IMG/VR virus record: IMGVR_UViG_3300048589_000479 | Length of the DNA stretch: 64,000 nucleotides | Source of the DNA: an uncultured virus (IMG/VR IMGVR_UViG_3300048589_000479) | Lineage: Duplodnaviria; Heunggongvirae; Uroviricota; Caudoviricetes | Reading direction: 5' to 3' (one strand) | Part shown: in pieces, positions 13,664-49,070 of the stretch | Layout of the letters: each line of letters starts with the position of its first letter | How positions within the stretch are numbered: the first letter of the stretch is position 1 | Notes under the pieces: generated by a model | Database searches by the model: none | The model's input: only the letters and a program-made list of their open reading frames with translations | Told to the model about the DNA's origin: nothing | Position numbers and translations under genes: made by a program

Positions 13664-15409
13664 GTGAACGTCAAGGAACTGCAGGACAAGCTCGAGGCGC
13701 TCCGCGCCGAGCTCGCCGAGATCAAGTCCGGAGATCGCACGCCGGAGACGGCCGAGAAGCTCACCGCGAAGCGCGCCGAGATCGCCGAGGCGCAGACTGA
13801 GCTCACGGCAGCGGAGGCCCAGGCCGCCGAGGTCGAGGCCGCGTTCGCGGATGCCGACGGTGACGAGGCTCCGGCCGCGCCTGCCGACGGTGACGGCGAC
13901 GGCACCGGCGACGCGGCTCCCGCCGCTCCCGCTGCTCCTGCAACCCCGGCGACTCCCGCTGCTCCCGATGCTCCGGCTGACGGCGACGCGGGCGGCGCTG
14001 GCGACGGCGCTGCGACGGGCGGCCCCGTGGCCCTGGCAGCTTCCGGTGCGGGCGACCGCGCTGGCGGCGACGCCGGCAACGACGCCGACGCGATGCAGCC
14101 GATGGTCCTCACTGCCTCCGGCAGCGCAGGCCAGGCCGGGCTCACGCCGGGCATGAAGCTCGACCGCGACTCGCTCGGCTCGATCCTCACCGCTGCGGGC
14201 GCCGCAGCGGGCGTGATCTCGCCCCGCACGCGCGTCGTGTCGATCGACCGCTTCGGCGAGGGCGTCGAGCCCCTGTCGAACAACCTCTCCACGATGGAGA
14301 ACACGCGGCTGCTCGCGAAGGCGCGCGGCGACTTCGCGAAGTCGAAGATCGGCAACAACCGCCCCGTGGCGCTCACCGCCGCCGGCTGCTTCTGTGGCCC
14401 GGACGAGCTCATCCGCACGACCGGCGTGGTCGGTCGGCGCGGCCGCCCGTTCGCGGCGATGTTCCCGACCATCCCGATCTCCGGCGGCTTCCGAGCCATG
14501 CCGGACCTCGCGTTCAACGTGGACACCGGGCTCCGCTCCGGCGTCTCGCAGTGGACGTGCACCGACCAGGGCGACGTGGACCCGGACGCTCCGGGCACCT
14601 GGAAGCCCTGCGCGGAGATCGAGTGCTTCACGGAGGCGACCTACGAGCCCTACGCGGTCGTGGCCTGCGTGACGGTCGAGCGGTTCCACCGCTGGGCGCA
14701 CCCGGAGCAGGTCGATGCCTGGATCAACCTGCTCGGCATCGAGTACGACTCGCTCGCCGAGACGCTCCTGATCGACCAGATCGAGGCCGAGGCCGGCACG
14801 CCGCTCACCGTGGGCGACACCGGCGACCTCATGGCCGACCACTCGCTCGTGGCGAAGATCATCTACGCCCTGTCCAGCATGGCGTACCCGCTCGGGTACC
14901 AGTTCCGCGAGGGTGCCGGCGTCCTGGAGGGCTACACGCTCTCCGTGCCCGTCGGCATGGCCGAGGCGCTGTACGCCGACGAGAAGCTGCGAGGCTTCCC
15001 GTCGGGGATCAACTCGAAGGAAGCGATCGTCGCGGCCATCGAGAGCGGCACCGGCGTCCGGATGGTCGAGCGACTCGACGAGAGCACGTCGCGCAAGGCG
15101 GCGGCTGCGGCCACCGTCGCGGCGATGAACGCGGGTGGCGCGATCGACGACGCCACCACGCCGCTGCTCCCGCCCACGTTCCGGATGTACCTCATTCCGC
15201 TCGAGGGCTACGTCCACGGCGAGGGCACGATCGTCTCGGCCGACTGGCATGTGGACGACCCGCTCCTGCGCCAGAACAAGCTGCGCTACTTCCTGGAGAA
15301 CGCCGAGATCCTGGCGAACCTCTCGGTGCGCAAGCCGCACATCATCGACGTTCCCGGCGAGATCAAGGGCTCCTACACGGACCTCGTGCTCGCACCCGGC
15401 AACGTCTGA
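13664..15409 (+). CDS. Major capsid protein with N-terminal scaffold-like region
   Basis: 581 aa; coiled coil and Ala/Pro/Asp linker, then ALTAAGCFCGP, KPCAEIEC, LLRQN motifs; position. Confidence 0.8.
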   Translation: MNVKELQDKLEALRAELAEIKSGDRTPETAEKLTAKRAEIAEAQTELTAAEAQAAEVEAAFADADGDEAPAAPADGDGDGTGDAAPAAPAAPATPATPAAPDAPADGDAGGAGDGAATGGPVALAASGAGDRAGGDAGNDADAMQPMVLTASGSAGQAGLTPGMKLDRDSLGSILTAAGAAAGVISPRTRVVSIDRFGEGVEPLSNNLSTMENTRLLAKARGDFAKSKIGNNRPVALTAAGCFCGPDELIRTTGVVGRRGRPFAAMFPTIPISGGFRAMPDLAFNVDTGLRSGVSQWTCTDQGDVDPDAPGTWKPCAEIECFTEATYEPYAVVACVTVERFHRWAHPEQVDAWINLLGIEYDSLAETLLIDQIEAEAGTPLTVGDTGDLMADHSLVAKIIYALSSMAYPLGYQFREGAGVLEGYTLSVPVGMAEALYADEKLRGFPSGINSKEAIVAAIESGTGVRMVERLDESTSRKAAAAATVAAMNAGGAIDDATTPLLPPTFRMYLIPLEGYVHGEGTIVSADWHVDDPLLRQNKLRYFLENAEILANLSVRKPHIIDVPGEIKGSYTDLVLAPGNV

Positions 15410-15438
15410 TCCACAGGCGAGTAGGCAAGGTGACACCG

Positions 15439-15478
15439 CGCCCCCGGCAGGAGCCCAACCAGGCGCCCGCCGGGGGCG
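15439..15478 (+). terminator. GC hairpin after major capsid gene
   Basis: 10-bp stem CGCCCCCGGC/GCCGGGGGCG; no U-tract. Confidence 0.45.
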
Positions 15479-15501: not shown

Positions 15502-16362
15502 GTGAGCGCAATCCTTCCACTTCCACGACCGCCCCGCATTCGCGGCGGCCTCGAGACGGTCGCGCAGGCGCTCGTCGGGCTCGACGGCGAGCCTCTGACC
15601 GAGGGCGAGTGGAACAAGGGCGTGATCCACACGAACGCCGCCCAGGGCGAGACGTTCGTCTCCGGCTACGGCGGCGGGTCGTATGGCACCGACCCCGACT
15701 CGGTGAAGCCGACCGTGGACAACCCGGACGCCGAGCTCTTCATGCCGGTCACGCTGGGCGCGATCTTCGAGTGCCAGATGAACGCCCCCGGCGGCGTGCT
15801 GGGCGACGTCTCGCAGCAGCGGGCCGTGTCGCTCCTGGAGCGCCGTTCGTTCTCCGATCTCGCCGAGATCCTGCTGACCGGCGAGAACTACCGCTGCGAC
15901 TCCGGGGACCAGAACCCCGGCTTCATCGCGAACGGTGAGCTCGCGGGCAACGGCGACGCTGGCGGCTCGCCGCGCGGCGTGCTGCACGGACTCATGGACG
16001 GCGTGTGCGGCGGCTGGGAATCCGACCCGGTGTTCCACATCCCGCGCGCGTTCATGGCGCACTTCATCGGCGAGCTCGTGCAGTGGGACGAGGCCAACGA
16101 GGTCTTCCGCTTCGGCCCGCACCGCGTCTCGTTCGACTGCTACCCGAACGAGGGTCCGACCGGCAGCACACCGGCCAACCCGGACGGGTCCGAGGTTTGG
16201 GTCTGGGCGTCGCTGCCGCCGAAGCTCGCCGTGTCCGAGGAGATCTCCACGACGCTCGTGCGCACGGAGCTCCAGAACCGCTACCAGGCACGCGCCGAGC
16301 GGGAGGCGATCATCGCCTTCGACACCGGCCTCGTGCTCGCGGCGAAGGCGATCGTCTCGTGA
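15502..16362 (+). CDS. Second capsid protein (minor/pentamer-type)
   Basis: 286 aa after MCP; ends QNRYQARAER..FDT; same layout as hexamer/pentamer pairs in cluster B mycobacteriophages. Confidence 0.6.
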   Translation: MSAILPLPRPPRIRGGLETVAQALVGLDGEPLTEGEWNKGVIHTNAAQGETFVSGYGGGSYGTDPDSVKPTVDNPDAELFMPVTLGAIFECQMNAPGGVLGDVSQQRAVSLLERRSFSDLAEILLTGENYRCDSGDQNPGFIANGELAGNGDAGGSPRGVLHGLMDGVCGGWESDPVFHIPRAFMAHFIGELVQWDEANEVFRFGPHRVSFDCYPNEGPTGSTPANPDGSEVWVWASLPPKLAVSEEISTTLVRTELQNRYQARAEREAIIAFDTGLVLAAKAIVS

Positions 16363-20204: not shown

Positions 20205-20232
20205 GCCCTTTCCTGTGCCTCACGAACCCCGT

Positions 20233-20248
20233 GCGTATAACGGGGCCG
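20233..20248 (+). promoter_or_regulatory. Class III promoter motif
   Basis: Exact consensus upstream of major tail gene. Confidence 0.8.
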
Positions 20249-20275
20249 AGAGCGATTTCAACACAGGAGTTCGTC

Positions 20276-21010
20276 GTGGCAGAGAAGTGTGTCAACCTCG
20301 GTTGCCCGGAAGTCATCCGTCTGGCCCTGGCCGATGCGTGCTCCGGCGCGCCGGTCCCCGGTCCAGCGAACGGCATGGCCCTGCGCTGCCAGCGCAACGT
20401 CACGATCGAGGCCCGCATCCGCGAGGCTGACACGTCCGAGTTCGTCTCGGACTGCGGCCAGGTCGACGAGTACGTCCAGGATGCCTACGTCCAGGGCTAC
20501 ACCGTCAGCTTCGAGAGCGCGCGCATCTCGCCCGAGCTCCACGCGCTGCTCCTGGGCTACGACCTGCTCGCGATCGGCGGCGAGAACGTCGGCTTCATCG
20601 AGGAGGCGTCCGTCGGCTGCACCACGCAGACCGTGCGCCCGTCCTTCATCGTGGAGGCGTTCTACCGCGTTCGCCAGTGCGACCCCGGCGGTGGCTCCAA
20701 CTACCTCCGGCGCGTGCTCCAGGGCGTCAAGTTCAACCCGGTCGAGCAGGACAAGGAAGGCCAGATCGTCTTCGAGCGCTACACGGGCACTTCGGTCCCG
20801 GCGCTCACGGCCGGCCTGGTCAACCCGGTCAGCGACACGGGCGGTCCCTACCAGGACTTCCCGGCTGACATCGTGACGGAGATCGGCGCGCTTCCGGCCG
20901 GCCACCTGAACGTCGGCCTCCGCTGGGTGGACCCGATCGCGTCGCCGACCAACGGCGTCACGCTCGAGGCCGGCACCTGCTACACCGCCGAGGTTCCGGT
21001 CGACGCCTGA
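20276..21010 (+). CDS. Major tail (tube) protein
   Basis: GTG after AGGAG; 244 aa; position, own promoter shared with MCP; 8 Cys. Confidence 0.7.
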   Translation: MAEKCVNLGCPEVIRLALADACSGAPVPGPANGMALRCQRNVTIEARIREADTSEFVSDCGQVDEYVQDAYVQGYTVSFESARISPELHALLLGYDLLAIGGENVGFIEEASVGCTTQTVRPSFIVEAFYRVRQCDPGGGSNYLRRVLQGVKFNPVEQDKEGQIVFERYTGTSVPALTAGLVNPVSDTGGPYQDFPADIVTEIGALPAGHLNVGLRWVDPIASPTNGVTLEAGTCYTAEVPVDA

Positions 21011-21030: not shown

Positions 21031-21771
21031 ATGAGCCGTGAAGTCTGCGCTCCGTGGACGACTCCCGACAAGCTCTGCAACGAGGGGGGCGGGACCACGA
21101 CCGATTGCGTCGATGGTTCCGTCCCCCTCGTCTTCAAGTGGAGCGACGAGGAGCTCATCCTGGCCGCCTCGAACATCCTGTACGCCCGGACGTGCTTCAT
21201 GTACCCCGGCGTGTGCGGCCCGTTCGACGTGTGGCCCTGCATCGACAGCCGGTGCTACTCGCCGAAGCACCCGTGCGCGCCGTGCGTCAGCTACAACGTC
21301 ATCATGCTGCCGAGCGACCTGCCCGTGCTGGGCATCGACTCGATCACCGAGAACGGCGTGGCGCTCGACCCCGGCGCGTACCGGCTCGATCGCGGCAACC
21401 GCGTCGTGCGCCTGGACGGTCTGCGCTGGCAGCGCAACAACTTCGGGCTGACGTCCGAGGGCGTCGAGACGATCGTGACGTACACGGTCGGCGTGCTGCC
21501 GCCGGTGGAGCTCCAGATGGCTGCGGCCGCGCTCGCTGACGAGCTCAAGAAGTCGTGCAACGGCCAGTCGTGCGCGCTCGATCCCCGCGTGGCGAGCTTC
21601 CAGCGTCGCGGCGTCGCCGTCGAGCTCACCGATCTCGCCGAGATGCTCAAGTCCGGCGCCACGGGCATTCCGATCGTCGATCACGCGCTCAAGGTCCACG
21701 GTCAGTGCGCGCAGGGCACCGCTACTATGGTGGACCCAGCAGCACCGTACCGAGGGCAGCGTGTGACCTGA
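21031..21771 (+). CDS. Head-to-tail adaptor
   Basis: AASNILYART..AYRLD..LADELKKSC..RGV..TGIPIVD motifs; 12 Cys. Confidence 0.7.
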   Translation: MSREVCAPWTTPDKLCNEGGGTTTDCVDGSVPLVFKWSDEELILAASNILYARTCFMYPGVCGPFDVWPCIDSRCYSPKHPCAPCVSYNVIMLPSDLPVLGIDSITENGVALDPGAYRLDRGNRVVRLDGLRWQRNNFGLTSEGVETIVTYTVGVLPPVELQMAAAALADELKKSCNGQSCALDPRVASFQRRGVAVELTDLAEMLKSGATGIPIVDHALKVHGQCAQGTATMVDPAAPYRGQRVT

Positions 21772-22262
21772 TGCGTCGAAGCCATGTAGCGAAGGACATT
21801 CTGGACGCGCTCTATGCGTGCATGATCTCCCAGGTGGGTCAGCGCTGCGACGAGTACGTTTGGTCGCGCACGCGCGGCGTCCCGCCGGCCGACTGCAACT
21901 CGATCACCGCCTCGTGGATGGACCGCGAGCAGAGCACGTTCGGCGACTGCGAGCAGATGGGCGAATGCCGCGAGTGGGACGCCGTGTTCGGTCTGCGCAT
22001 CGTGCTGACGCGCGTGTGCATGGGTCCGGACCAGGCGGTGAACTTCGACTGGTCACTCGAGGACGCGGCGGCCGCGTGCTTCGACGACGACCTGGACCTG
22101 ATCGAAGAGTGCCTCAACTGCATGGACTGGACGACGATTCGCCAGACCCACGGCATCGACACGATCTACGCCGGCACGACGAATGACATCGAGAGCGAGG
22201 GTGGTGGCTACTCGGCATACGTCGAGCTCATCATCAAGGCCCGCGAGTGCTGCTCGGTCTGA
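21771..22262 (+). CDS. Putative tail terminator/connector
   Basis: TGATG overlap; 163 aa, 11 Cys; ..EGG.. near C-terminus; position. Confidence 0.55.
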   Translation: MRRSHVAKDILDALYACMISQVGQRCDEYVWSRTRGVPPADCNSITASWMDREQSTFGDCEQMGECREWDAVFGLRIVLTRVCMGPDQAVNFDWSLEDAAAACFDDDLDLIEECLNCMDWTTIRQTHGIDTIYAGTTNDIESEGGGYSAYVELIIKARECCSV

Positions 22263-23628: not shown

Positions 23629-26600
23629 ATGGCGGGCAATCGCGACATCCACGGGTCCGTCGTCCTCGACGTCAAGGTCGACGGCGAGCAGACCGCGAAG
23701 CAGCGACTCGAGAGCGCATTCGCGACCCTCGAAGCGAACGTCAACGTCAACGCTGACTTCAACAAGGCCCAGGTCCAGGCCGCGCTCACCGCCGCCTCGA
23801 AGGGGCTCTTCGTCAAGGTCGGCGTGGTCTTCGACGACGGCGACGCGAAGCGCAGTTTCCGCGATATGGAGCGGCGCCTGGACGCACTCACGCTCGCGCG
23901 CGAGAAGGCCGCGCTCGACGGCGCGAAGGCCGAGAAGAAGGCCAACGAGTCGATCCGCGTGGACAACGCGAAGACCGGCAACGCCCGCAAGCGCGTCAAC
24001 GACCAGATTCGCCTCTCGACCGAGAAGACGGCGAACTCCTGGGTGGCTGCCGAGAAGAAGGCCAACGAGTCGATTCGCCTCGACTACACCCGCACCGCGA
24101 ACCATAAGGTGCGCCTCGACAACGCGAACCGAGCATTCCACGAGCGCATCGAAACCGGCCTGACCGCGTTCGAGCTCCGCGAGCTCGAGAAGCGCGAGAC
24201 GGCCCGCGTGACGTCTGCCACCCGGTCCAACGACAAGGTGCGCACGCAGCAGTCGAAGGGCGAGCAGGACCGCGCGACCGCCCGCGAGCGCGGCCTGGTT
24301 CGCCTCGACGTGCTCGAAGACCAGCACTTGAAGCGACTCGAGCAGTACGAGGCCGCAGCCGCCCAGCGGCGTGCCGTCATCAACTCGCAGCTACAGGCGC
24401 GGATCGCGGCGCAGAACAACCTCTTCGAGCAGCGCCAGGAGATCGCGCGCCAGCGCGTGCAGGACCGGCTCAACGCGAAGCCGCTGATCCAGCGCATCCT
24501 CATCAACTCGAACCAGATCAACCAGTCGCTCGCGGAGTTCGACCGCACCGTGTCGCGCGTGCTGCGCACGTCGCTCACCGCGTTCACCGTCTGGTCGGCC
24601 GGCGTCGCGCTCGCGTTCGGAGCCGCCGCTACTGCCGGCGTCGTTGCGTTCGCGCGCCTGGAAACGTCTGCCACGCGAGCGGCTGCGATCGTCGCCTCCG
24701 ACGCCTTCAACGAGTCGCTGCTCAAGAACGGGCGCGGCATCACGAACTTCGCCGAGGTCAGCGAGAATGCGCAGAAGCGGATCACGGAGGCGTCGTCGAA
24801 GATCGCGCTGACCACGCTGTTCTCGCCGACCGAAGTCACCGAGGGCGTCCGGTCGCTCCTGCAGGCAGGCCAGGATCTCGAGACTGCTCTGCTCAACATT
24901 GGACCCGCTGCCGAGTTCGCGCAGATCAACGAAATCGAGCTCAAGGAAGCGACCGACGGGCTCGCAGCCGGCCTCGACTCCGCTGGCCTCCAGGCGAAGG
25001 ACTCGGGCGCGCTGCTCGACAAGTTCGCGTTCGTCGCGCAGAACGCGCTCGGCGAGGCCAGCGACTACATGACGGCGTTCGCCAACAAGTCGGCCGCCGC
25101 CGCCCGCGCGTTCGGCTTCTCCAACGACGAGGCGCTGACGCTGCTCGCGCTGCTCGGAAAGACCGGCACGCTCGGCGAAGAGGCCGGCACCCAGGCCAAC
25201 ATCGTCTTCCGCGAGCTCTCGCGCGGCGCCGGTCGTGCTGGCAAGGCGTGGCAGGACGCGGGCATTGACATCAACGGCCCCTTGAACGAGATGATCTTGA
25301 AGATCGGCACGCTCGCCGCCGAGGTCAAGCGCACGCAGGGCCGCGCGGGTGTCGCGCAACTCGCGGAAGAGCTCGGCCTGACGTTCCGATCCGTGTCGTC
25401 GATCCTGCAGATTCTCCCGAAGGCGCAGGAGCTCGGACTCGACGGGCTCAACCAACTCACCGAGGGCATCTCGAAGTCGCAGGGCGCCGTCGCTCGCCAG
25501 TCGGAGGAGCTCAAGAAGACGATCGGGTTCCAGTTCGACAACCTGCTCGACTCCTTCTACGTCGCCTTCGCGAAGTTCGGCGAGGCGGCGTCGGACAACG
25601 TGACCAGCCTCTTCGACAAGCTCGCGGGCTCGGGCGGCCTGATCGACCAGGCGACGCCTCGCGTGATCGAGTTCGGCGAGCGCTTCGGCGCGCTGATCGG
25701 CCGCATCGCAAACTTCCTTGACACCGACAGCTTCAAGAACGGCGTAGCCACTCTCGTCGAGTCTATCGAGGTCACGATCCGAGGAGTCAGCGAGGCGTTC
25801 GCGGCGTTCTCCGCTGCGTTCGACAACGCCGAGAAGGGCGCATCCACGTTCGAGAACGTGGCGACCGCGATCCTGGCATTCGCACGGGTGTCGGCAACGG
25901 TCCTGCCCGCCTTCGCTCGCATCCTGGGAACGGTCTTCGACTTCCTGATCGACAACGCAGATGCCTTCGAGACGTTCGCGAAGCTCACGCTGGGCGTGTA
26001 CGCGCTACGCAAGGCGTACTCGCTGCTGATCCTCCCGCTGCTCACCGCCGCCGACGGCATCCGGAAGATTCGCGCCGCGCTGATCGCCGCGACCGGAGCC
26101 GAGGCTGCGAACACCGTCGTCGGCGGGATCGCGCGCGTCGCCGATGCCTACGGCCTGCTCGGGAAGCAGGCGGCGTCGGCCGCCGCGAGCATCGAGCTCG
26201 TGCAGGTTGCCAACTCCACGGCGTTCCCGACCCTGGGTCGTGGCGCGGCTGGCGGCGTTGCGGCGAAGGGTGCGACAGGCAACGGCGCCACGACCGCTGC
26301 GGTCGCCGGCAACGCGGCCCTGCTCGCGCCGGAGCTCTCCCGTGTCTTCAAGGGCGGCGCCGGTGGAGCGAACGCCGCTCGCGCCGCCACCGCCTTCGAG
26401 ACGATCACGCCGGCTGTGGCGAAGGGCGCAGGCCCGATCGGTCGGATCACCGCCCTCTTCGTCAAGCTGGGCGACGTGTTCGCGAAGCTCGTGCCGGGCT
26501 TCATCAAGGGGCTGCCGCTGATCGGACGCCTGGCGACCGGGTTCGCGAAGTTCGCCGGGCCGGTCGGTATCGTCATCGCGCTCATCGACGGCGCCATTGG

Positions 26601-29600
26601 AATCTTCAAGGGCTTCTTCGAGGAGATCTCGAAGACAAAGGACGAGAGCTCGGAGGTCGGGCGCACGTTCGCGGAGCTCAAGCCGATCTTCGACGCCGTG
26701 TTCGCCAGCGCGAAGGTCGCGTTCGCAATCCTCTTCGACGTGCTCGCTGTCGTCGGCCGAGTCGGTCAGTCGATCGGACGGCTCTTCGGCGGCCTGTTCA
26801 ACGACATTCTCATCAACTTCGGCGACGTCATTCGCGGGATCAAGGCGCTCTTCAATGGAGAGTTCACCGTCTTCCTCAAGGCGTTCGGCGACGTCATCAT
26901 CAACTCGATCACCGCCCCGTTCCGTCTCGCGATCGGCTTCGTCATCGATCTCGTCGCCGACCTGCTCGGCAACCTCGAGAGCGTCCCCGTGATCGGCGGC
27001 AAGATCGAGGGCGTGGCCGACGGACTGCGTGGCGCTGCCAGCGCGACGCGCGACCTGCGCGTGAACATGAGCGCCGCCGAGGTCGAGGCCGACAAGGTGG
27101 CGACGTCCACCGGCGAGATCGACCTGGCAACGCAGCGCGCCGCGCTCTCCGCGAAGGATCTCGCCTACCAGAACCAGACGGTCGCCCGCGTCGCCTCGCT
27201 CTCCGCGCAGGTGTTCGAGCGCGCCGCCGCTCGCTCCGTCGTGCAGATCGACCGCACGAAGGCCGCCACGGTCGGCGCTGACGGCGCGGCGCGCAACCTA
27301 CTCGGAACCGTCGGCGGGATCACGCCCACCTTTCAGGGCATGGCCGATGCCGGCGTGGTCGGGCTCTCCCGCATCGAGTCGGCGGCGAGCGCCACGACCG
27401 CCGAGCTCCTCGCGATGCAGGCGGCTCTCCAGGCGGGGCTCGGCCAGGCCGCCAACGCGCAGAACTCGATCATCGACTCGGCGCAGCAGTTCGCGCTCTC
27501 GGAGGCCCAGGCCGGTCGCGGCGCGCTGTCCGTCGAGCAGGTCCAGGCCAACATCGCAGCGCAGGCAGAGCAGCGCCGACGCGACCGCCTCGTTGCGGCA
27601 GCGCGCAAGTCGCGCCGCGACCAGAAGATCATCGAAGACGCGCTGGGCACCGACGAGCTCGGCAGCCTGGACGCGACCGACACCGGCGCGGCGGCGAAGC
27701 CGATCCAGCGCGAGTTCATCGATCCGGACGACGCGGTGCAGGCGGCGATCGACCGACTCAAGCCCGCGCGGAAGATCGCCGAGACGAACGCGCTGATCTC
27801 GAAGGTCGTCGGCGACGCCGGCAAGTCCTACCAGTTGACGCGCCGCGACACGATCCTTCTCGCCGAGACGATGCCGCGCATTGACAAGGCGATCGAGGTC
27901 CAGAAGAAGAAGGTCGAAGAGCTCACGACCGCGCTGGACACGCTCCGCAACGTGCAGATCAAGGGCACCCAGGCGTTCTCCGACGCGGCGTTCGAGAACG
28001 AGCAGGCGATCAAGCGACTCCAGTTGCAGCGTCTCGACACGCTCGCCGTCCCCGGCACCACCGAGGAGTCGGCGGCAGTCAAGGCGATCGACGACCAGAT
28101 CAAGGCGCTGCAGACGACCGCCGAGCGCGCGTCGCTCGTCGAGTCACTCGAGCTCGACCCGCTCCGTCGCAAGCTCGAAGAGACGTTCAACCCGGTCAAG
28201 GAAGACACGTTCGCCAACATCATCAAGAGCTTCAACGAGCTCTCGGCGGCGCAGGAGACGCAGACCGCGAAGCTGACGAGCCAGGAGGCAATCCAGGCGA
28301 AGCTCAACGAGCGGCTGACCGGCGCGCAGGAGCGCTACACGAAGATCGACGAGGCCGCGCAGAAGTCGGTCGAGGCGTTCAACAAGGCACAGAGCGCCGC
28401 AGCCGAAACCGCCACGTCGCTGTCGTCGGTTGGCACGTCGGCGTCGGCCGGCGCGCGCAGCGTCAACCGCTACTCCGATGCCGTCGAGAACGTCCCGACC
28501 GGCAAGGGCGTCGTGGACAAGTCGCTCAAGGGGATCAACGATCGCGTCACCGAGCTCGCCTCGCAGTTCACCGGCGCCGGTGCCCGCGTCGTCACGCTCT
28601 ACACGCGCGGAATCAACCAGGCGCTCGTGGACGTTCTACAGCCGGCCCTCGCCACTGTCGTCGAGCGCACGCTGATCTACCTCCGCACTCCGATCGCTCC
28701 GGCGGCGAAGGCTGGCGAGGCGATCATGGGCGGGTTCCTGGCCGGCATGAAGGAAGGGTTCGGATCGCCGGAGAAGATCGGCTCCGTCGCCTGGTACCTC
28801 AACGTCTTCATCCCGAAGTGGATCCGCGAGAACAAGGGTCCGGTCGCCTATGACGCGACGATCCTCGTGCCCGCAGGCCAGGCCGTCATGGAGGGCTTCG
28901 GCAAGGGTCTTCGCGGCGGGTTCGCCCAGATCCAGTCGTTCGTGAAGGACGTTGGCCCGTCGCTCAAGGAGTTCATCAGCGCCGATGCGTTCTCCGGGCG
29001 CACGGCGACGATCATGGCTGACATCGCGCTCGGCAAGTCGCCCGACGTCAACGCCGCCTTCGAGGACATCAAGGCGGCGATGGTCGTCACCGCCGGCAGC
29101 TTCCCCGGCGACGCCGATCCGAGCCTGTCGTTCCTGCACCCGACGCTCTCGCTGGCCGACACGATCCAGCAGGCGTTCGGCATCATCAAGGCGCTCGGCG
29201 GCGGGCTCAACACCGGCGGCCCAGGACAGATCTCGCGGCCCGACGGCTCGACCTCCAACAACTCGCGCCACGAGGACGGCGTGGCGGCTGACATCGGCAC
29301 GGGAACCTCGCAGCCGACGGCCGCCTCCCTCAAGCTCTTCGAGCAGGCGAAGAAGCTCCTCGGCTCCGTCTTCCGGCAGGTCATCCACAACGGCGTCGGC
29401 CTCACCGCTGGCGGCGGCTCGTTCCCGGACAGCCAGCACTTCGATCACGTCCACCTGGAGTGGTTGCAGGGGCTCGGCTTCAACGAGAACTCCGGGAAGA
29501 TCGGCAAGCCGCCCGTCGTGGACATCCCCGGCGCGCCGCCGCAGATCGACGCGGCGCTCAACGCGGCCTCGAAGAAGTACGGCGTCGAGCTCGCGCTGGT

Positions 29601-30192
29601 TGCGGCTGTCGCGAAGCAGGAGTCGGGCTTCCGTCCGAACGTCACGTCGCCCGCTGGCGCCGGTGGCCTCATGCAGCTTATGCCCGCCACGGCGCGTAGC
29701 CTCGGCGTGTCCAACGTGTTCGATCCGTTCCAGAACGCCGACGGCGGCACGAAGTACCTCAAGCAGCTTCTTCAGCGCTTCGGCGGCCGCTACAACCTCG
29801 CGATGGGCGGCTACAACGCCGGCCCGAACGCGCCCGGTCTGGACGAGGGACAGCTTCCCCCGTACTCCGAGACGCGCAACTACGTCCGGCTGGTCACGAG
29901 CTACCTCGAGGACTTCCGTCGCAAGTTCGGCGGCTTCCGCGAAATGGGCGGCGGCGTGCAGGCGGGCAAGGCATACGTCGTGGGCGAGAAGCGCCCGGAG
30001 ATCTTCGTGCCCAACCGCGCCGGCACGATCCTCCCGGACGCCGCCGCTAGTCTGTCCAGCGCCGGATCGACCTACCAGGACAACCGCACCATCAACAACA
30101 CGATCAACACGCAGGCGAGTGACCCGGAGGCTGTCGCCGACGTCTTCGACGCCCGCACGCGGTCCAGCATGACCGGAGTGATCTTCCGATGA
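23629..30192 (+). CDS. Tape measure protein with C-terminal peptidase-like and SLT domains
   Basis: 2187 aa Ala-rich; TP901-type core (FSPTEV..GEEAGT); SRHEDGVAAD..HFDHVH; QESGF..GLMQLMP..YNAG..ETRNYV. Confidence 0.92.
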   Translation: MAGNRDIHGSVVLDVKVDGEQTAKQRLESAFATLEANVNVNADFNKAQVQAALTAASKGLFVKVGVVFDDGDAKRSFRDMERRLDALTLAREKAALDGAKAEKKANESIRVDNAKTGNARKRVNDQIRLSTEKTANSWVAAEKKANESIRLDYTRTANHKVRLDNANRAFHERIETGLTAFELRELEKRETARVTSATRSNDKVRTQQSKGEQDRATARERGLVRLDVLEDQHLKRLEQYEAAAAQRRAVINSQLQARIAAQNNLFEQRQEIARQRVQDRLNAKPLIQRILINSNQINQSLAEFDRTVSRVLRTSLTAFTVWSAGVALAFGAAATAGVVAFARLETSATRAAAIVASDAFNESLLKNGRGITNFAEVSENAQKRITEASSKIALTTLFSPTEVTEGVRSLLQAGQDLETALLNIGPAAEFAQINEIELKEATDGLAAGLDSAGLQAKDSGALLDKFAFVAQNALGEASDYMTAFANKSAAAARAFGFSNDEALTLLALLGKTGTLGEEAGTQANIVFRELSRGAGRAGKAWQDAGIDINGPLNEMILKIGTLAAEVKRTQGRAGVAQLAEELGLTFRSVSSILQILPKAQELGLDGLNQLTEGISKSQGAVARQSEELKKTIGFQFDNLLDSFYVAFAKFGEAASDNVTSLFDKLAGSGGLIDQATPRVIEFGERFGALIGRIANFLDTDSFKNGVATLVESIEVTIRGVSEAFAAFSAAFDNAEKGASTFENVATAILAFARVSATVLPAFARILGTVFDFLIDNADAFETFAKLTLGVYALRKAYSLLILPLLTAADGIRKIRAALIAATGAEAANTVVGGIARVADAYGLLGKQAASAAASIELVQVANSTAFPTLGRGAAGGVAAKGATGNGATTAAVAGNAALLAPELSRVFKGGAGGANAARAATAFETITPAVAKGAGPIGRITALFVKLGDVFAKLVPGFIKGLPLIGRLATGFAKFAGPVGIVIALIDGAIGIFKGFFEEISKTKDESSEVGRTFAELKPIFDAVFASAKVAFAILFDVLAVVGRVGQSIGRLFGGLFNDILINFGDVIRGIKALFNGEFTVFLKAFGDVIINSITAPFRLAIGFVIDLVADLLGNLESVPVIGGKIEGVADGLRGAASATRDLRVNMSAAEVEADKVATSTGEIDLATQRAALSAKDLAYQNQTVARVASLSAQVFERAAARSVVQIDRTKAATVGADGAARNLLGTVGGITPTFQGMADAGVVGLSRIESAASATTAELLAMQAALQAGLGQAANAQNSIIDSAQQFALSEAQAGRGALSVEQVQANIAAQAEQRRRDRLVAAARKSRRDQKIIEDALGTDELGSLDATDTGAAAKPIQREFIDPDDAVQAAIDRLKPARKIAETNALISKVVGDAGKSYQLTRRDTILLAETMPRIDKAIEVQKKKVEELTTALDTLRNVQIKGTQAFSDAAFENEQAIKRLQLQRLDTLAVPGTTEESAAVKAIDDQIKALQTTAERASLVESLELDPLRRKLEETFNPVKEDTFANIIKSFNELSAAQETQTAKLTSQEAIQAKLNERLTGAQERYTKIDEAAQKSVEAFNKAQSAAAETATSLSSVGTSASAGARSVNRYSDAVENVPTGKGVVDKSLKGINDRVTELASQFTGAGARVVTLYTRGINQALVDVLQPALATVVERTLIYLRTPIAPAAKAGEAIMGGFLAGMKEGFGSPEKIGSVAWYLNVFIPKWIRENKGPVAYDATILVPAGQAVMEGFGKGLRGGFAQIQSFVKDVGPSLKEFISADAFSGRTATIMADIALGKSPDVNAAFEDIKAAMVVTAGSFPGDADPSLSFLHPTLSLADTIQQAFGIIKALGGGLNTGGPGQISRPDGSTSNNSRHEDGVAADIGTGTSQPTAASLKLFEQAKKLLGSVFRQVIHNGVGLTAGGGSFPDSQHFDHVHLEWLQGLGFNENSGKIGKPPVVDIPGAPPQIDAALNAASKKYGVELALVAAVAKQESGFRPNVTSPAGAGGLMQLMPATARSLGVSNVFDPFQNADGGTKYLKQLLQRFGGRYNLAMGGYNAGPNAPGLDEGQLPPYSETRNYVRLVTSYLEDFRRKFGGFREMGGGVQAGKAYVVGEKRPEIFVPNRAGTILPDAAASLSSAGSTYQDNRTINNTINTQASDPEAVADVFDARTRSSMTGVIFR

Positions 30193-31610: not shown

Positions 31611-32695
31611 CAACTCCCACCTGCATGATGCGAGGCTACGGGATCGCGCTCGTGAAGAACGGCGTGAAGCTCGGCACGGCCGGCGCGCAGATCCAGCGCA
31701 TCGAGTATGACCGCGTGGTGGACGGGATCTCGAAGGCGAAGATCGACCTCGTGACCGCTGGCGACAACTGCTGCGGTCAACTCGCTGCAGTGGATCACTG
31801 GAACACCGACCTGCTCATCACGACGTACAACTCGCAAACCGGCCTGGACGAAGTGCTGTGGCGCGGCCCGGTGCGCAAGCCGACGTTCCGGCGCGGCTCG
31901 GTCACGATCGAGGCGACTGACGTCCTGTCGTGGCTCCAGGTGCGAATGCTCGAACAAGCCTTCGACTTCGTGAACGAGGACGTGTCCGACATCTTCATCG
32001 ACCTCGCGACCTACGCGCTGTCGAAGGATCCGAACCATCAGCCGGTGTACGAGTTCGTGCGCTACCTCTCCGGCACCACCGAGTCGCGCAAGGTCGAGAC
32101 GGCCGCGCTGCGCATGACGTGGAACGTCGTCACCGAGATGCTCAACGCCGGCCTGGACGTCACCACGTTCGGGTCGCGGATCGTCGTCGGCGTCCCCGCG
32201 TTCACGGCCATCGAGCTCAAGGATACGGACGTGCAGGGCACGAACCCGGCCGAGATCGCGAAGGACGGCGACGAATACATCAACCGGGTGCTCGCCAGCG
32301 CCAGCCGCGACGTCGTGGGCATCTGGCCGCCCGGCCCCGCCACCGGATCCGACGGGTTCCCTCTCGTCGAGGGCTCGCTGTCGGACTCTCAGCTTCCCGA
32401 CGTCGATTCGGCCACCGCTGCTGCGAAGGCTCGCTACGAGTTCGCCGCCGGTGGCGTTCGCCGAGTCCGGGCCTCCGGCGGGCTGATCCTGCTGCCGACG
32501 TCGGGCATCGACCACCGCAAGCTGATCGCCGGCCAGATCTTCAACTACCAGGCCACCGAGACGTGCTACGCGGCGAAGGAGTCGCTGCGCCTGGGTCGGC
32601 TCGCCAACGTCGTCGAGAAGGGCGGCGAGCGCGTCACGATCGACCTGCAGCCGGTCGGTTCCTTGCAGGGCGACGCTACGCTGTCCAGCGTATAA
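31607..32695 (+). CDS. Minor tail protein (Tal/hub-like)
   Basis: GTGA overlap; VLWRGPV..VTIEATDVLSWL motif. Confidence 0.7.
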   Translation: MTTPTCMMRGYGIALVKNGVKLGTAGAQIQRIEYDRVVDGISKAKIDLVTAGDNCCGQLAAVDHWNTDLLITTYNSQTGLDEVLWRGPVRKPTFRRGSVTIEATDVLSWLQVRMLEQAFDFVNEDVSDIFIDLATYALSKDPNHQPVYEFVRYLSGTTESRKVETAALRMTWNVVTEMLNAGLDVTTFGSRIVVGVPAFTAIELKDTDVQGTNPAEIAKDGDEYINRVLASASRDVVGIWPPGPATGSDGFPLVEGSLSDSQLPDVDSATAAAKARYEFAAGGVRRVRASGGLILLPTSGIDHRKLIAGQIFNYQATETCYAAKESLRLGRLANVVEKGGERVTIDLQPVGSLQGDATLSSV

Positions 32696-33527: not shown

Positions 33528-34327
33528 TGCCTGCCCGCTGTCACAACGACACCTGCACCGTCCACTGGTCGGAGGTCAACACTCCGAGCCCGGCGTACCA
33601 GGCTGACGTCCAACTCAACCCGGCGTCGCTGGCGTGCGTGGACGGGTCGGGCATCGGCGTGCTCCTGTCGCCGAACGCCGGCAACATGCTGTCGAACCCC
33701 GGCAACGGCATCTTCGCGAGCCTGCCCGCGTCGCTCGTCACGGACCTGTCCGGCAACCCGGACAACAAGGGCGTCTCGCCCAGCGCTGACCAGTCCTCGC
33801 CGCAGAGCTCCGACACCTACTCGTGGACGAACACGACCGGCCGCGACGTCACGCTGCTCGTGTCGGGCGAGTTCAACTTCGACTACGGCATCCTCGGCCC
33901 GGAGCACGCATACTCCTACTCCGCAGGGAACGGTCAGCGAGCCGGGCGTTTCGCGTCGGCCGCCTTCGACCCCCTCGGAGTAGGCGACCCTGCCAACCCG
34001 ATCTCGCCCTTCAACGCGCAGATCGCCATGCGGCTGCTCGCGAACATCGGAGCGCCGCCCACGACCGCGCAGAAGGCGTGCCGCGTCGACATTGGCGGCG
34101 CGATCTTCGTGTCGGTCACGACGTCAGCCGAGCGCAAGGTGACGCGCGTGCCGTTCTTCTGGATGGTGCGCGTCAACGCCGGCCAGACGCTCAACATGAA
34201 GTCGGATATGTTCTACCAGGGGCCGTCGCAGACCGTCAACGTGGTCGCGACGCCCGGAGCCGGCACAGGTCTGGCCGGCACCGGGCACGAGCTCTGGAAC
34301 CTCCAGGTCGCGGCAATCCCGATCTGA
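33527..34327 (+). CDS. Minor tail protein
   Basis: 266 aa; TAATG overlap; beta-rich. Confidence 0.65.
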   Translation: MPARCHNDTCTVHWSEVNTPSPAYQADVQLNPASLACVDGSGIGVLLSPNAGNMLSNPGNGIFASLPASLVTDLSGNPDNKGVSPSADQSSPQSSDTYSWTNTTGRDVTLLVSGEFNFDYGILGPEHAYSYSAGNGQRAGRFASAAFDPLGVGDPANPISPFNAQIAMRLLANIGAPPTTAQKACRVDIGGAIFVSVTTSAERKVTRVPFFWMVRVNAGQTLNMKSDMFYQGPSQTVNVVATPGAGTGLAGTGHELWNLQVAAIPI

Positions 34328-35619
34328 TGCCGTGCGGCTGCACATCTGCCTGCGGGTGCAACCTGGTTCCTGGCGAGAACGTCACGATCGACCGGCTGGG
34401 TGACACCTTCACGATCTCGGCCACGGGAGCGATCGTCGGCGTCGAGAGCACCGACTGCATCGATCTCGTCATCGACGTGGACAAGGTGCTCTCCGCGAGC
34501 CCAATCCTGTCGCCGGACCCGACGTCCGTGGACCTCGAGTGCACGCCCAGCGGCCTTGCCGCATCGGTTGTGGTCGATCCGAGCTCCACTGCGATCGTCA
34601 CCGAAGGCCCGGACGGGCTGCGCGTGGACATTCCACCGGCGCCCGGCGGCGGCGGCGAGATCCGTCCTGGAGATCTGATCTTCGTCGCCAGCGTCGGCTT
34701 CCGTCCGGAGGCGATCGACGCCGACGGCCAGGAAGTGCTCCGCGCCTCGTACCCGGCCTGCCACGACGCGCTGTCGCTGATCCACCCGGCCGGCGAGCGC
34801 ATCGCGGGCGATCCCACGATCACCGGCATCAACAACACGCGCTTCGTCGAGGTTGGTATGCCGCTGGAAGCCACCGGCTTCCCCTTCGGCACGACGGTCG
34901 CCGGGAAGACCGGCACGACGATCACCGCCTCCCTGCCCGCTGACGACTCCGGCGTGGACACCGAGGTTCGGGTGTACCCGTGGGGCAACGGCGACGGCAT
35001 CGACACCTTCAACACGCCCGATATGAACCGCCGCTACCCGCGCGGCTACGACTACATCGGCGGCGACGAGCTCGGCACGCTGGACGAGGGCGGCACGACG
35101 ATCGGCCTCGGCAACCTGCCCGAGCACGACCACCCGGCCACCGGCGCGACGTCGGTCACGATCGCAGGCGCGGCCACGGGGATCTCTGCCACCGGCAGCG
35201 ACTCCGGCCACGTCCACGGCATCGACGCCTCCGGCAACCATCAGCACGACGGGGCCGGCGCCAACCACGATTTCATCGTCGAGAACTCCACTGTCGATTA
35301 CGTCTATCTCGACGTCGTGGCGGTCAACGTGGATACGGCCAACACGTTCCGCATGACGACCAACGGCGTCGAGGGCGGCCTGTCGCGCAAGCCGAACCGG
35401 GAGGGCAACACCTACCCGGCCGGCAACCACGACCACGGCGGCGCGACCGACTCCGGCACCGCGAACATCACCGTCGGGATCACCGACCCAGGCCACGGTC
35501 ACGCCGGCTCCACGGCCGCCACGACCGTTGACGTCGAGCTCGGCGGCGGCGTGCCCGCGCCGGACCCGATCACCGTCGAGCCCCGCAACGCAACTGCTCG
35601 CTGGATGGTGGTGGTCTAA
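34327..35619 (+). CDS. Tail fiber protein with tail-collar domain
   Basis: PGDLI..ADGQEVLRASYP..WGNGDGIDTFNTPD; NLPEHDH and HxH repeats. Confidence 0.75.
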   Translation: MPCGCTSACGCNLVPGENVTIDRLGDTFTISATGAIVGVESTDCIDLVIDVDKVLSASPILSPDPTSVDLECTPSGLAASVVVDPSSTAIVTEGPDGLRVDIPPAPGGGGEIRPGDLIFVASVGFRPEAIDADGQEVLRASYPACHDALSLIHPAGERIAGDPTITGINNTRFVEVGMPLEATGFPFGTTVAGKTGTTITASLPADDSGVDTEVRVYPWGNGDGIDTFNTPDMNRRYPRGYDYIGGDELGTLDEGGTTIGLGNLPEHDHPATGATSVTIAGAATGISATGSDSGHVHGIDASGNHQHDGAGANHDFIVENSTVDYVYLDVVAVNVDTANTFRMTTNGVEGGLSRKPNREGNTYPAGNHDHGGATDSGTANITVGITDPGHGHAGSTAATTVDVELGGGVPAPDPITVEPRNATARWMVVV

Positions 35620-35846
35620 TGCCCTGCGGATGTCAGTCGGCGTGCGGTTGCAACATCGTGCAGGGCGCAGGGATCAGCGTCAACCGCACGGGTGACACCT
35701 TCACGATCACGAACACTGCGCCGGCAACCGCTGGCGTGCCCACGTTCGTCCAGCAGACCCCGCCTGTCGTCGTCGGCCCCTACGTCTGGTACGAGACGGA
35801 CGGCGCTGGCGCATTCGTCGCGCTGTGGATCGAGGACGGAACATGA
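35619..35846 (+). CDS. Small tail protein, N-terminus paralogous to 34327 gene
   Basis: MPCGCQSACGCNIV..GDTFTI. Confidence 0.7.
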   Translation: MPCGCQSACGCNIVQGAGISVNRTGDTFTITNTAPATAGVPTFVQQTPPVVVGPYVWYETDGAGAFVALWIEDGT

Positions 35847-45420: not shown

Positions 45421-46136
45421 GACGAGATCACCGGAGCCTCGGAGAGCGCGGCGTGCAGCTTCGCGATCTCGTCGTCCAGGTGCGCTCGTGCGGCTCCCTG
45501 GGCTTCCTTCACGATCTCGTCGGAGCCGTTGTCCATCGCCTGCATGAGCAGTTCCGGGTCGCGGTCGGGACGGAACGTGTTGTCGATCTCGAAGTCGATG
45601 AAGCTGTCGGGTACGCCGGCCTCGCTCGCGTGGTCGCCGGTGTCGTCGTTGATGCCGAGCACGCGCACGATCACGCCGCCTGCCGCCTCGATCGCGCGGG
45701 CCTCGTTCTCGAAGCGCACGTCGGTGAAGACGTAGGTGTACGGGCCGACGCGCATCATTGCGTCCTTGCCGCGCTGACGGTCGAGCTCCTGCATGGCGAC
45801 CTCCACCCAGAAGTCCTCGCCGAAGATCTCGCGGTGCGCTTCGGTGCCGTAGCGTTGCAGGATCTCGCGCACGGAGAACGAGCGGCCCAGGTCGCGACCG
45901 TTGCCCTTGAGGTCGAGCACCGAGACGCGCATCTGCGGCTCGTTCTTCCAGGCGTCGAGAACCTCCGGGCTGACGTCGAAGAGCGCGGCGACTGACTTCT
46001 TGAGGGGGTCGGCGAATGAGGCGCGGCGATAGATGTGCTCGCCGAAGACGAATCGCAGCCGGCTATACACTTCGTCCTTGCCGGCGCCCATCTTGCCTGT
46101 CAGTCCGATCAGTGTCGGACGTGCGGTGCTGGTCAT
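45417..46136 (-). CDS. Deoxynucleoside monophosphate kinase
   Basis: IGLTGKMGAGKD, FADPLK, REILQRYGTE, DVRFENE, HASE. Confidence 0.88.
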   Translation of the reverse strand: MTSTARPTLIGLTGKMGAGKDEVYSRLRFVFGEHIYRRASFADPLKKSVAALFDVSPEVLDAWKNEPQMRVSVLDLKGNGRDLGRSFSVREILQRYGTEAHREIFGEDFWVEVAMQELDRQRGKDAMMRVGPYTYVFTDVRFENEARAIEAAGGVIVRVLGINDDTGDHASEAGVPDSFIDFEIDNTFRPDRDPELLMQAMDNGSDEIVKEAQGAARAHLDDEIAKLHAALSEAPVISS

Positions 46137-47650: not shown

Positions 47651-48597
47651 GCGGTCACTTCCTTCGGTCGAGCCGCGACGATGCGCTCGGCGGCCATCTT
47701 CGCGTACTCGGGGTTGAGCTCGATGCCGATGCAGCGACGTCCATGCTGCTCTGCTACCAGCGCGGTCGTGCCGGCTCCGAAGAACGGGTCGATCACGGTG
47801 TCGCCTACGGCGCTGCCGGCAAGGATGCACGGCTCGATGAGCGCGGGCGGGAACGTGGCGAAGTGAGCGCCCTTGAAGGGCCTGGTCGCGACCGTCCAGA
47901 CGCTGCGACGGTTGCGCGTGGGGCTCGAGTCGCCGTCCTTGTATTTCGCGGCAAGCGACGCCAGCCCGCTGTTGCCGCCGTTCCCGGCGCCGTAGTGCTG
48001 CGTTTCCTTGATCCCCGTTCCAGGACCGCCCTTCGAACAGTCCTTCGCGGGCTCGCGTACCGCGTCAGAGTCGTAGTAGTAGCGCTGCTGTTTCGCGAGC
48101 AGGAACAGGTACTCGTGGCTCTTCGTCGGGCGATCCTTCACCGACTCTGGCATCGGGTTCGGCTTGTGCCAAATGATGTCCGAGCGCAGATACCACCCAT
48201 CGGACTGCAAGGCGAGTGCGACGCGCCACGGGATGCCGAGCAGATCCTTGTGCTTCGTACCGTCGCCCATCGGCTTGTCGTTCGGCCGGACGCCGAACCG
48301 ACGCGCGCCGCTCTTCGGATCGACGCCCTGCGACGCCCCCTTGTGCGAGGCGTAGCTGTCGCCCAGGTTGAGCCATAGCGTGCCGTCGTCAGCGAGCACG
48401 CGGCGCACTTCGCGGAACACGTCTACGAGTCGCTCGATGTAGTCGGCGGGCGTCTGCTCGAGGCCGATCTGCGCGTCGCCCGTGCCGTAGTCGCGCAGGC
48501 CGAAGTACGGCGGCGACGTGACGCAGGTGCGGGCGATTCCGTCCGGCAGCGTGCGAAGATGCTCGAGCGCATCGCCGATGAGGATGCGGCCCGCCAT
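47647..48597 (-). CDS. DNA methyltransferase (SPPY, N4C-like beta class)
   Basis: TSPPY, IIWHKPNPMPES, HFATFP, DPFFGAGTT. Confidence 0.9.
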   Translation of the reverse strand: MAGRILIGDALEHLRTLPDGIARTCVTSPPYFGLRDYGTGDAQIGLEQTPADYIERLVDVFREVRRVLADDGTLWLNLGDSYASHKGASQGVDPKSGARRFGVRPNDKPMGDGTKHKDLLGIPWRVALALQSDGWYLRSDIIWHKPNPMPESVKDRPTKSHEYLFLLAKQQRYYYDSDAVREPAKDCSKGGPGTGIKETQHYGAGNGGNSGLASLAAKYKDGDSSPTRNRRSVWTVATRPFKGAHFATFPPALIEPCILAGSAVGDTVIDPFFGAGTTALVAEQHGRRCIGIELNPEYAKMAAERIVAARPKEVTA

Positions 48598-49070
48598 CAC
48601 ATGAGTCCCTTCACGGCGAACGAGTTGGAGGCGGCCCAGAGCGCCAGCGGCAGCGCCGGGTAGATCACAGCGTCGCCGAGCACGAGCCATGCCGCGCACG
48701 CGACGAGCGAGGTCCAGAAGCTCATGCAGTACGGGCACTCGAACAACTGGCCGAAGAAGCCTGGCACGCGCGGCCCCTGGGCTGGGTCGAACTCGTAGCC
48801 CATGAACGTGTCGAAGTCGGCGCAGGTGCCAGTAGCCTCGTCGACCGGGACGATCTGGACCTTCGTCTCGGTCCAGTGGTAGTAGCGCGCTGGACGGGGC
48901 GAGTCCCCGGTGTCGGGGTCGCGCTCCAGGATCGTGCCCTCCTCCGGCGCCGAGCGCAGCCAGATCCACTCGCGCAGCGGCCGTGCGATCTCGTCCTTCG
49001 TGAGCAGGTAGGCGACGCGGCCGGAGGCCAGTGTCAGCAGGGCGAAGGTGGCGGCGTCAGCGGCGTGCAT
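48597..49070 (-). CDS. DUF1360-like membrane protein with CPYC
   Basis: LASGRVAYLLTKDEIARPLR and GQLFECPYCMSFW; about three hydrophobic helices. Confidence 0.75.
   Translation of the reverse strand: MHAADAATFALLTLASGRVAYLLTKDEIARPLREWIWLRSAPEEGTILERDPDTGDSPRPARYYHWTETKVQIVPVDEATGTCADFDTFMGYEFDPAQGPRVPGFFGQLFECPYCMSFWTSLVACAAWLVLGDAVIYPALPLALWAASNSFAVKGLM

Follow-up and report, generated by a model that had tools for sequence, protein, structure and literature searches.

The closest described system is the virion of the Mycobacterium abscessus phage Jabs, whose T=9 capsid is built from a 594-amino-acid (aa) hexamer protein and a 257-aa pentamer protein, and which contains about 1,700 disulfides according to the available part of its cryo-electron microscopy (cryo-EM) report (doi 10.64898/2026.07.24.740622). 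In the same text, these bonds are described as joining capsomers with each other, the tail terminator with the tube, successive tube rings, the tube with the distal tail protein (Dit), Dit subunits among themselves, and the N-termini of fibers with the Dit; whether they arise spontaneously or through a host or phage oxidoreductase is left open by its authors. Jabs has been likened to the MabL prophages in the accessible portion of another report (PMC12993973). In this study, we analyzed a 64,000-nucleotide stretch of DNA from an uncultured virus of the Caudoviricetes (IMG/VR record IMGVR_UViG_3300048589_000479), hereafter the window, for which it had originally been predicted that a phage-encoded membrane protein of the DUF1360 family, carrying a CPYC motif, crosslinks a cysteine-rich virion shell. 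Judged by its predicted proteins, the window represents a deep branch of the actinophages that build their capsids from two major proteins, one for hexamers and one for pentamers, a lineage to which mycobacteriophage cluster B, the MabL prophages, and Jabs belong. Disulfide stapling of its virion is well supported, because its structural proteins are homologous to those of Jabs and because partner cysteines co-vary across related phages; taken as a whole, the material is likely best explained by a stapled two-capsid-protein virion with DUF1360 as a companion gene.

Two other comparisons help to place this system. The concept of a virus-encoded disulfide route for virion proteins in the reducing cytoplasm is known from the poxviruses, whose pathway (E10R, A2.5L, G4L) combines an Erv/ALR flavin oxidase with thioredoxin-like relays, but these domains were not found among the scanned open reading frames (ORFs) of the window. 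In Agrobacterium phage Milano and cyanophage Pam3, disulfides stabilize the capsid, the neck, the tail, or the attachment of fibers, although the structural proteins of these phages are unrelated to those studied here, their hosts are Gram-negative or cyanobacterial, and Milano has no DUF1360 gene. For Milano, the accessible part of the report describes a virion-wide disulfide network that is sensitive to dithiothreitol (PMC10491603).

Placement in the two-capsid-protein lineage

The predicted proteins of the window match seven of the eight Jabs-type structural PHROGs (776, 777, 779, 783, 792, 837, and 838), and the order of the portal, major capsid hexamer protein (MCPh), major capsid pentamer protein (MCPp), tail tube, adaptor, Dit, and Tal genes is the same as in Jabs, even though protein identity to Jabs is only 15-30%. 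The two-capsid module itself, a hexamer protein of ~580 aa (phrog_777) followed by a pentamer protein of ~260-290 aa (phrog_779, a weak match), is present. As a stand-in for Jabs, we used the GenBank MabL-type prophage prophiT49-1, whose proteins have the same lengths as those of Jabs (594, 257, 352, 247, 180, and 478 aa), fall into the same PHROGs as those of the window, and bear cysteine at every Jabs disulfide position compared. PHROG numbers presumably follow family size, in which case 776 to 783 would be families of similar size.

The lineage is widely represented among sequenced phages, a cluster B capsid protein matching 877 records by tblastn. With the same program, the Dit of the window matched minor tail proteins in 552 phage records. 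Neither the DUF1360 protein nor MCPh of the window had a match by tblastn against phages, the structural arm had none by megablast, and sequence searches of the PDB with MCPh, Dit, and the DUF1360 profile returned nothing or noise. The nearest virus record, a 31-kb fragment that is 45% complete, gave no DUF1360 match.

Cysteine content and co-variation of partner cysteines

All cysteine counts of the original prediction were reproduced from the translated ORFs, among them the 8 of the tail tube and the 6 of MCPh. We compared them by binomial tests with a background of 1.43% (122/8513 residues), derived from 40 roughly called non-structural ORFs of the window. Cysteine is enriched in the Dit (27/473, P=2.5e-9), the tail terminator (11/163, P=2.7e-5), and the adaptor (12/246, P=2.7e-4), and marginally so in the tail tube (8/259, P=0.035); it is depleted in the tape measure (0/2187, P=1.9e-14) and the portal (0/476, P=0.001), both of which had been noted as cysteine-free. 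Chance as the source of this skew was rejected by these tests. Neither capsid protein is enriched (1.0% and 1.4%), so the proposed cysteine-rich virion shell holds for the terminator, the tail, and the Dit and fails, by count, for the capsid. The terminator had been introduced as a connector; its count stands, and its position and cysteine alignment give it the present name. The cysteine motifs proposed for the N-termini of tail genes were also seen: MPARCHNDTC in the gene starting at 33527, MPCGCTSACGC at 34327, and MPCGCQSACGC at 35619.

The further idea that proteins that must move or be ejected are spared from crosslinking proved weak. Tape measures that are almost free of cysteine are general in actinophages, as the control phages illustrate (0/823, 0/837, 1/1188, and 0/1229), and the portals of relatives hold between 1 and 6 cysteines each. 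Because cysteine-free tape measures also occur in these unrelated controls, this depletion is not specific to the phage of the window. When the tape measure is left out, the cysteine content of the whole module is 0.94-2.10% in seven lineage phages against 0.48-0.94% in five controls (Mann-Whitney P=0.007), a comparison to which we give little weight since it involves no correction for phylogeny and uses rough ORF calls.

The positions of the cysteines are more telling than their number. We aligned the structural proteins of the window with those of ten named relatives, which are phages of Mycobacterium, Gordonia, Microbacterium, Streptomyces, and Arthrobacter, and asked for two capsid and two tube pairs of Jabs whether both partners, one, or none are present in the eleven phages. 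At MCPh C271/C347 (Jabs numbering), which form a hexon-hexon bond in Jabs, both cysteines occur in nine phages and neither in two, and MCPp C97, which provides the penton link, occurs in exactly those nine; the three positions, which align with C244, C321, and MCPp C91 in the window, are thus concordant in 11/11. The intra-hexon pair C281/C563 is likewise concordant in all eleven, with both partners in five and neither in six; the window belongs to the latter, with glycine (proline in a seven-phage alignment) and valine in these columns. In the tail tube, the pair C19/C131 is complete in ten phages, including the window (C37 and C150), and wholly absent from one, whereas C60/C79 is concordant in 9/11 and is replaced in the window by D79 and A97, other tube cysteines being present. 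Cysteine C66 of the tail terminator aligns with C93 of the Jabs terminator in a column conserved in 7/7, and the cysteine columns of the adaptor are conserved in 8 to 11 of the eleven relatives. In summary, the hexon-hexon, penton, C19-C131, and terminator positions of Jabs are kept in the window, and the intra-hexon pair and the tube pair C60-C79 are not.

The six MCPh cysteines of the window (positions 242, 244, 299, 316, 321, and 335) include a further co-varying pair that is absent from Jabs: C316 and C335 occur together in six phages, and neither occurs in the other five. On this basis, capsid disulfides of a third type would be expected in the window, Scoot17C, KaiHaiDragon, Soos, TP1604, and TurkishDelight. 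It was also observed that prophi79-1 and Ranunculus, which are unrelated to each other, have both lost MCPh C271, C347, and MCPp C97 and kept C281/C563; these losses look like independent swaps between alternative capsid staples. Ranunculus, the cysteine-poorest phage, still holds one capsid pair and one tube pair.

It is important to consider the alternative that most of the additional cysteines form metal sites (Zn or Fe-S) or stay reduced in place of forming disulfides. In favor of this alternative, three cysteine clusters of the Dit (residues 9-12, 150-171, and 260-304, the last being particularly dense) resemble metal-binding motifs and only one of the 13 checked disulfide cysteines of the Jabs Dit aligns with a cysteine of the window (C296), almost all of the 27 Dit cysteines standing at other positions; in addition, the conserved adaptor cysteines fall in regions that are unresolved in the Jabs map, as far as the available text of that report describes it. 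However, two observations point the other way. First, all 15 cysteine positions of the Jabs Dit, which are present in prophiT49-1, sit in disulfides according to the same partial text. Second, the partner cysteines of the capsid and the tube are gained and lost together, as would fit bonded pairs. No histidine or aspartate partners of a metal site were noted. We regard the metal-site or reduced-thiol alternative as very unlikely. As for the dense Dit cluster at residues 260-304, the cysteine-bearing N-termini of the tail proteins in the window parallel the fiber N-termini that are bonded to the Dit in Jabs, and this analogy suggests that the cluster is their docking site.

Several points weigh against a stapled two-capsid-protein virion with DUF1360 as its companion. 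The virion of the window is known from its genes alone, and the homology of its capsid and tail tube proteins rests on weak profile matches and on alignments at 15-30% identity, in which MAFFT prefers to place cysteine on cysteine; this preference does not account for the joint absence of partner cysteines. No PHROG or Pfam match, including one to the tail terminator family phrog_810, was obtained for the product of 21771-22262. Most of the 27 Dit cysteines are without structural precedent, given the single aligned position described above, and some of them could bind metal. Finally, the DUF1360 gene of the window lies away from the portal gene, unlike in the eight relatives whose gene neighborhood was checked.

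In view of the homology to the Jabs structural module and of the pairwise co-variation in eleven phages, the proposal that the cysteines serve virion crosslinking is well founded as a prediction, and stapling by disulfides remains the reading that we prefer. In the particle envisaged, neighboring subunits would bond between capsomers, between pentons and hexons, between rings of the tail tube, between terminator and tube, and between fiber N-termini and the cysteine-dense Dit, so that the finished particle would be covalently stapled, as cryo-EM has established for Jabs and as homology and co-variation predict here. Closure of the bonds would most likely be a late event, brought about by the oxidizing conditions that assembled particles encounter at or after lysis. 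The DUF1360 gene accompanies the virion module in all lineage phages tested and is probably expressed together with the morphogenesis genes.

The DUF1360 companion gene and its possible roles

Special attention was given to the ORF at 48597-49070 on the minus strand, which is, as originally proposed, a genuine DUF1360 member (Pfam PF07098, 39.9 bits against a gathering cut-off of 21); it also belongs to phrog_781 (6.2e-14). Two family features are recognized in it: an A..R..D motif within the first of its hydrophobic segments and, where the second segment begins, a CxxC with an aromatic residue after it. The match to the Pfam model is confined to the C-terminal half of that model (positions 46-96). 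We carried out a census of this gene in 24 named phages that have the Dit or MCPh in common and in six controls (Bxb1, L5, Che8, TM4, phiC31, and Milano), with the result that a DUF1360-type gene is present in 24/24 of the former and 0/6 of the latter. The Pfam model matches 22 of the 24 at E<=1, and 19 of them pass the cut-off: 6/6 in the first batch; 8/8 in the second, with six over the cut-off and with R...D and CxxC recognized by eye in all eight; and 8/10 in the third, with seven over the cut-off. In this third batch, the sequences of Clown and TurkishDelight were inspected and the other six matches rest on score alone, including that of Teamocil at 18.1 bits, which is under the cut-off. 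The two phages missed by Pfam, Ranunculus and Kelcole, have DUF1360-type ORFs just upstream of the portal gene, identified by our own profile (E=1.2e-7) and by motif, respectively. In the accessible part of a cluster B1 preprint, gp7 is listed as a protein with a DUF1360 domain that is predicted to reside in the membrane.

The presence of the gene is constant in these phages, whereas the cysteine content of the virion varies. The summed cysteines of MCPh, MCPp, tube, adaptor, and Dit range from 12 in Ranunculus and 15 in Clown, through 57 in the window, to 67 in TP1604 and 79 in TurkishDelight, and the gene is never lost over this range. It is important to note that the co-occurrence lies within one lineage and is consequently, in effect, one evolutionary event. 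A search of viral contigs with the DUF1360 alignment returned one identical 10.7-kb fragment only, and no independent phage lineage with DUF1360 was found in it. No publication connecting the DUF1360 family with disulfides of virions came up in a full-text search for its name, and the words "DUF1360" and "membrane" do not occur in the available part of the Jabs preprint text (doi 10.64898/2026.07.24.740622).

The protein has three hydrophobic segments and one conserved cysteine pair, and its CPYC (residues 112-115) is situated at the start of a hydrophobic helix, in agreement with the original prediction. Among 28 close homologues, C112, C115, G17, R18, D26, R33, and W145 are invariant; in a cross-lineage alignment of 12 sequences, only the A, the R, the D, and the two cysteines remain so. 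When 1.84 billion representatives were searched with a profile, 394 matched at E<=0.001. The best 150 of these include 149 short proteins, of which 148 retain the CxxC and 92 have exactly two cysteines; the dipeptide between the cysteines varies widely (PY, PD, PW, VY, TR, HK, and others). Counts of lysine plus arginine in 34 sequences (N-terminal tail, 0/136; loop 1, 304/2363; loop 2, 5/118; C-terminal tail, 26/211) predict an outside N-terminus and an inside long loop. In this topology the CxxC would lie where the second segment meets the cytoplasm, as had been proposed.

The AlphaFold2 model of the protein is confident (predicted local distance difference test, pLDDT, 89.9); it starts with a helix, continues with a four-stranded insert, and ends in a long helical region. 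The insert, a beta sheet of ~50 residues (about 45-95) in the cytoplasmic loop, distinguishes the protein from the Jabs-type and cluster B-type members of the family, which lack it. A 4007-aa library protein matches profile positions 45-82 in 20 stretches, and the insert may be a repeat module borrowed from such a giant protein. Searches with the model gave nothing at E<=0.001 with Foldseek against the PDB; VIA-align returned generic helical matches, the best being an adenovirus cement protein (Z 7.3), with no DsbB, VKOR, or Erv among the matches returned, and the neighbors in the ESM Atlas are DUF1360 clusters only.

Based on these features, we weighed two readings of what the protein does. 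According to the first, it is a cytoplasm-facing membrane thiol oxidase that passes electrons to quinone or oxygen and that installs the virion disulfides, or oxidizes the thiol pool, before or at lysis. This is chemically plausible, and no observation of the kind that the original prediction had named as speaking against it was made. Like DsbB and VKOR, the protein has its CxxC where a membrane helix begins; among its homologues this motif is invariant and lies at the predicted cytoplasmic helix start. The gene occurs in all lineage phages tested, and it lies in operons with portal or terminase genes; it has been retained in the window despite its move away from the portal gene, and the members poorest in cysteine have no fewer than one capsid pair and one tube pair. 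Moreover, the authors of the Jabs report count a phage-encoded oxidoreductase as an open possibility in the accessible text (doi 10.64898/2026.07.24.740622).

The same protein, however, departs from the known oxidases in other respects. DsbB and VKOR have four or more membrane segments, two cysteine pairs, and an extracytoplasmic active side, whereas the DUF1360 protein has three segments, a single pair with neither a second pair nor a cofactor domain, and a predicted cytoplasmic active side. A Pfam scan of the protein at E<=0.01 returned DUF1360 only, with no DsbB or VKOR, and the translations of 80 ORFs of the window gave no match at this threshold to a thioredoxin, glutaredoxin, Dsb, VKOR, or Erv domain, in a scan that small or miscalled ORFs may escape. 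The variable residues between the two cysteines, the single evolutionary event behind the association, and the spread of cysteine load from 12 to 79 without loss of the gene also argue against an oxidase, as does the geometry of a membrane-embedded site, which would hardly reach cysteines at the interfaces of assembled 72-nm particles. Milano builds its virion-wide network without DUF1360, and such a gene is therefore not needed for these networks in general. All things considered, we regard the oxidase reading as unlikely, and we are doubtful that DUF1360 is required for the formation of the virion disulfides.

According to the second reading, the protein is a morphogenesis or membrane accessory with no part in disulfide formation, for example a platform for the portal or for prohead initiation, in which the CxxC binds metal or is structural, and the bonds arise by themselves once lysis exposes the particles to air. 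In prophiT49-1, Soos, TP1604, Ranunculus, Clown, and TurkishDelight, the portal gene directly follows the DUF1360 gene; in KaiHaiDragon one gene stands between the two, and in Kelcole DUF1360 is close upstream, although not adjacent, these being the eight of 24 phages in which its position was checked. Its constancy over a six-fold variation of cysteine load, a CxxC dipeptide that varies as in metal knuckles, and the case of Milano would all be expected from this reading. On the other hand, the gene is away from the portal in the window, and no other conserved metal ligand (histidine or a further cysteine) is present, so that a site with four ligands would need a dimer. We consider this reading possible, if tentative; a non-redox role in morphogenesis or at the membrane, the cysteines being oxidized spontaneously at lysis, is no less likely than an oxidase role.

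The family extends to cellular organisms. Bacillus subtilis has one DUF1360 gene, which we take to be the sigma-E sporulation gene yjcA, an identity that we assume; yjcA is a mother-cell sporulation gene. Should the oxidase reading be correct, DUF1360/phrog_781 would represent a new kind of cytoplasm-facing thiol oxidase, with one CxxC and three membrane segments, that closes, or makes the cell permissive for, the hundreds to thousands of virion disulfides late in infection, and its cellular homologues would do likewise for other cysteine-rich assemblies; we hold this broader proposal to be rather unlikely at present.

To summarize, the original prediction is partly supported: crosslinking by the cysteines, the predicted cytoplasmic side of the CxxC, and the co-occurrence of gene and virion type agree with it, its idea of spared proteins is weak, and the oxidase role is a hypothesis.

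Gene layout and meaning for the lineage

The window has a G+C content of ~68% and a rightward structural arm from ~9.5 to 38.4 kb, in which a lysis cassette is also found; leftward replication and packaging genes flank the arm on both sides. Table 1 includes the features that bear on the analysis.

Table 1. Coordinates, strands, and basis of assignment of the main features of the window.
Feature	Position	Strand	Basis
Portal protein, 476 aa, 0 cysteines	10411..11841	+	phrog_776 at 1.1e-13
MuF/protease-like head morphogenesis protein, 316 aa, 5 cysteines	12648..13598	+	phrog_859, phrog_29860, phrog_18402
Major capsid hexamer protein (MCPh), 581 aa, 6 cysteines	13664..15409	+	phrog_777 at 7.3e-19
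Major capsid pentamer protein (MCPp), 286 aa, 4 cysteines	15502..16362	+	phrog_779 at 8.9e-5, weak match
Major tail (tube) protein, 259 aa from first GTG, 8 cysteines	20231..21010	+	phrog_792 at 2.8e-4, weak match
Head-to-tail adaptor, 246 aa, 12 cysteines	21031..21771	+	phrog_783 at 1.2e-28
Tail terminator, 163 aa, 11 cysteines	21771..22262	+	Position after adaptor, size, cysteine alignment
Tape measure protein with C-terminal SLT lytic transglycosylase domain, 2187 aa, 0 cysteines	23629..30192	+	Pfam PhageMin_Tail and SLT
Distal tail protein (Dit), 473 aa, 27 cysteines	30189..31610	+	phrog_838 at 2.1e-27
Tal-like minor tail protein; true start probably ~31620	31418..32695	+	phrog_837 at 3.9e-29
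Tail protein, N-terminal MPARCHNDTC motif, 266 aa	33527..34327	+	Translation; no Pfam or PHROG family match
Tail fiber-like protein, N-terminal MPCGCTSACGC motif	34327..35619	+	Translation; analogy to the N-termini of Jabs ORF61/ORF62
75-aa protein, N-terminal MPCGCQSACGC module again	35619..35846	+	Translation
DUF1360/phrog_781 membrane protein, 157 aa, CPYC at residues 112-115	48597..49070	-	Pfam PF07098, phrog_781
Terminase large subunit, same leftward gene string as DUF1360	49778..51352	-	Pfam Terminase_6N and Terminase_6C

In the Jabs-type arrangement DUF1360 stands at the side of the portal gene, whereas in the window it has moved to a string of terminase and methylase genes. It overlaps the upstream ORF by 14 nucleotides at its start, and its stop codon shares bases with the first codon of a methylase gene (TGATG); tandem N6/N4 DNA methylase genes, at 46133-47830 (-) and ~47647-48597 (-), follow directly after it, and a MazG gene lies at 45073-45420. 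The large terminase gene lies on the strand opposite to that of the structural arm from the portal onward (10411-38404, +), ~11 kb from the nearer end of the arm and ~38 kb from the portal gene, which is an unusual layout. The site directly upstream of the portal, occupied by DUF1360 in relatives, holds instead a gene for a 194-aa protein with 7 cysteines (9562-10146, +; phrog_2428), which has a near-threshold match to the Acb2/Tad1 hairpin domain (26 bits against a cut-off of 27) and may be an anti-defense nucleotide sponge.

Among the tail genes, those at 34327-35619 and 35619-35846 (+) share an N-terminal module of ~35 residues, MPCGC.SACGCN followed by a conserved ...GDTFTI... stretch, and the shorter of the two looks like a duplicated anchor module. 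Elsewhere in the window, the gene at 39663-40499 (-) encodes a 278-aa protein with a signal-like N-terminal hydrophobic segment and an even number of cysteines (10), which is probably exported and disulfide-bonded. An endonuclease VII with 10 cysteines is encoded at 2730-3254 (-), and a weak match to sigma-70 region 2, a DUF6551 protein, and a SNF2-family helicase are found at 52194-52760 (-), 56545-57483 (-), and 61720-63456 (-), respectively.

Whatever the role of DUF1360, the pairwise co-variation indicates that stapling by disulfides belongs to the whole lineage, with its hundreds of sequenced actinophages, that it evolves one pair at a time, and that it is not peculiar to a single phage. 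An extra capsid bond without counterpart in Jabs is also predicted, which bears on the stability of virions and on the engineering of robust phage particles. In addition, the question of a catalyst that the authors of the Jabs report left open now has one concrete candidate gene, found in all lineage members tested and encoding a cysteine pair that is invariant.

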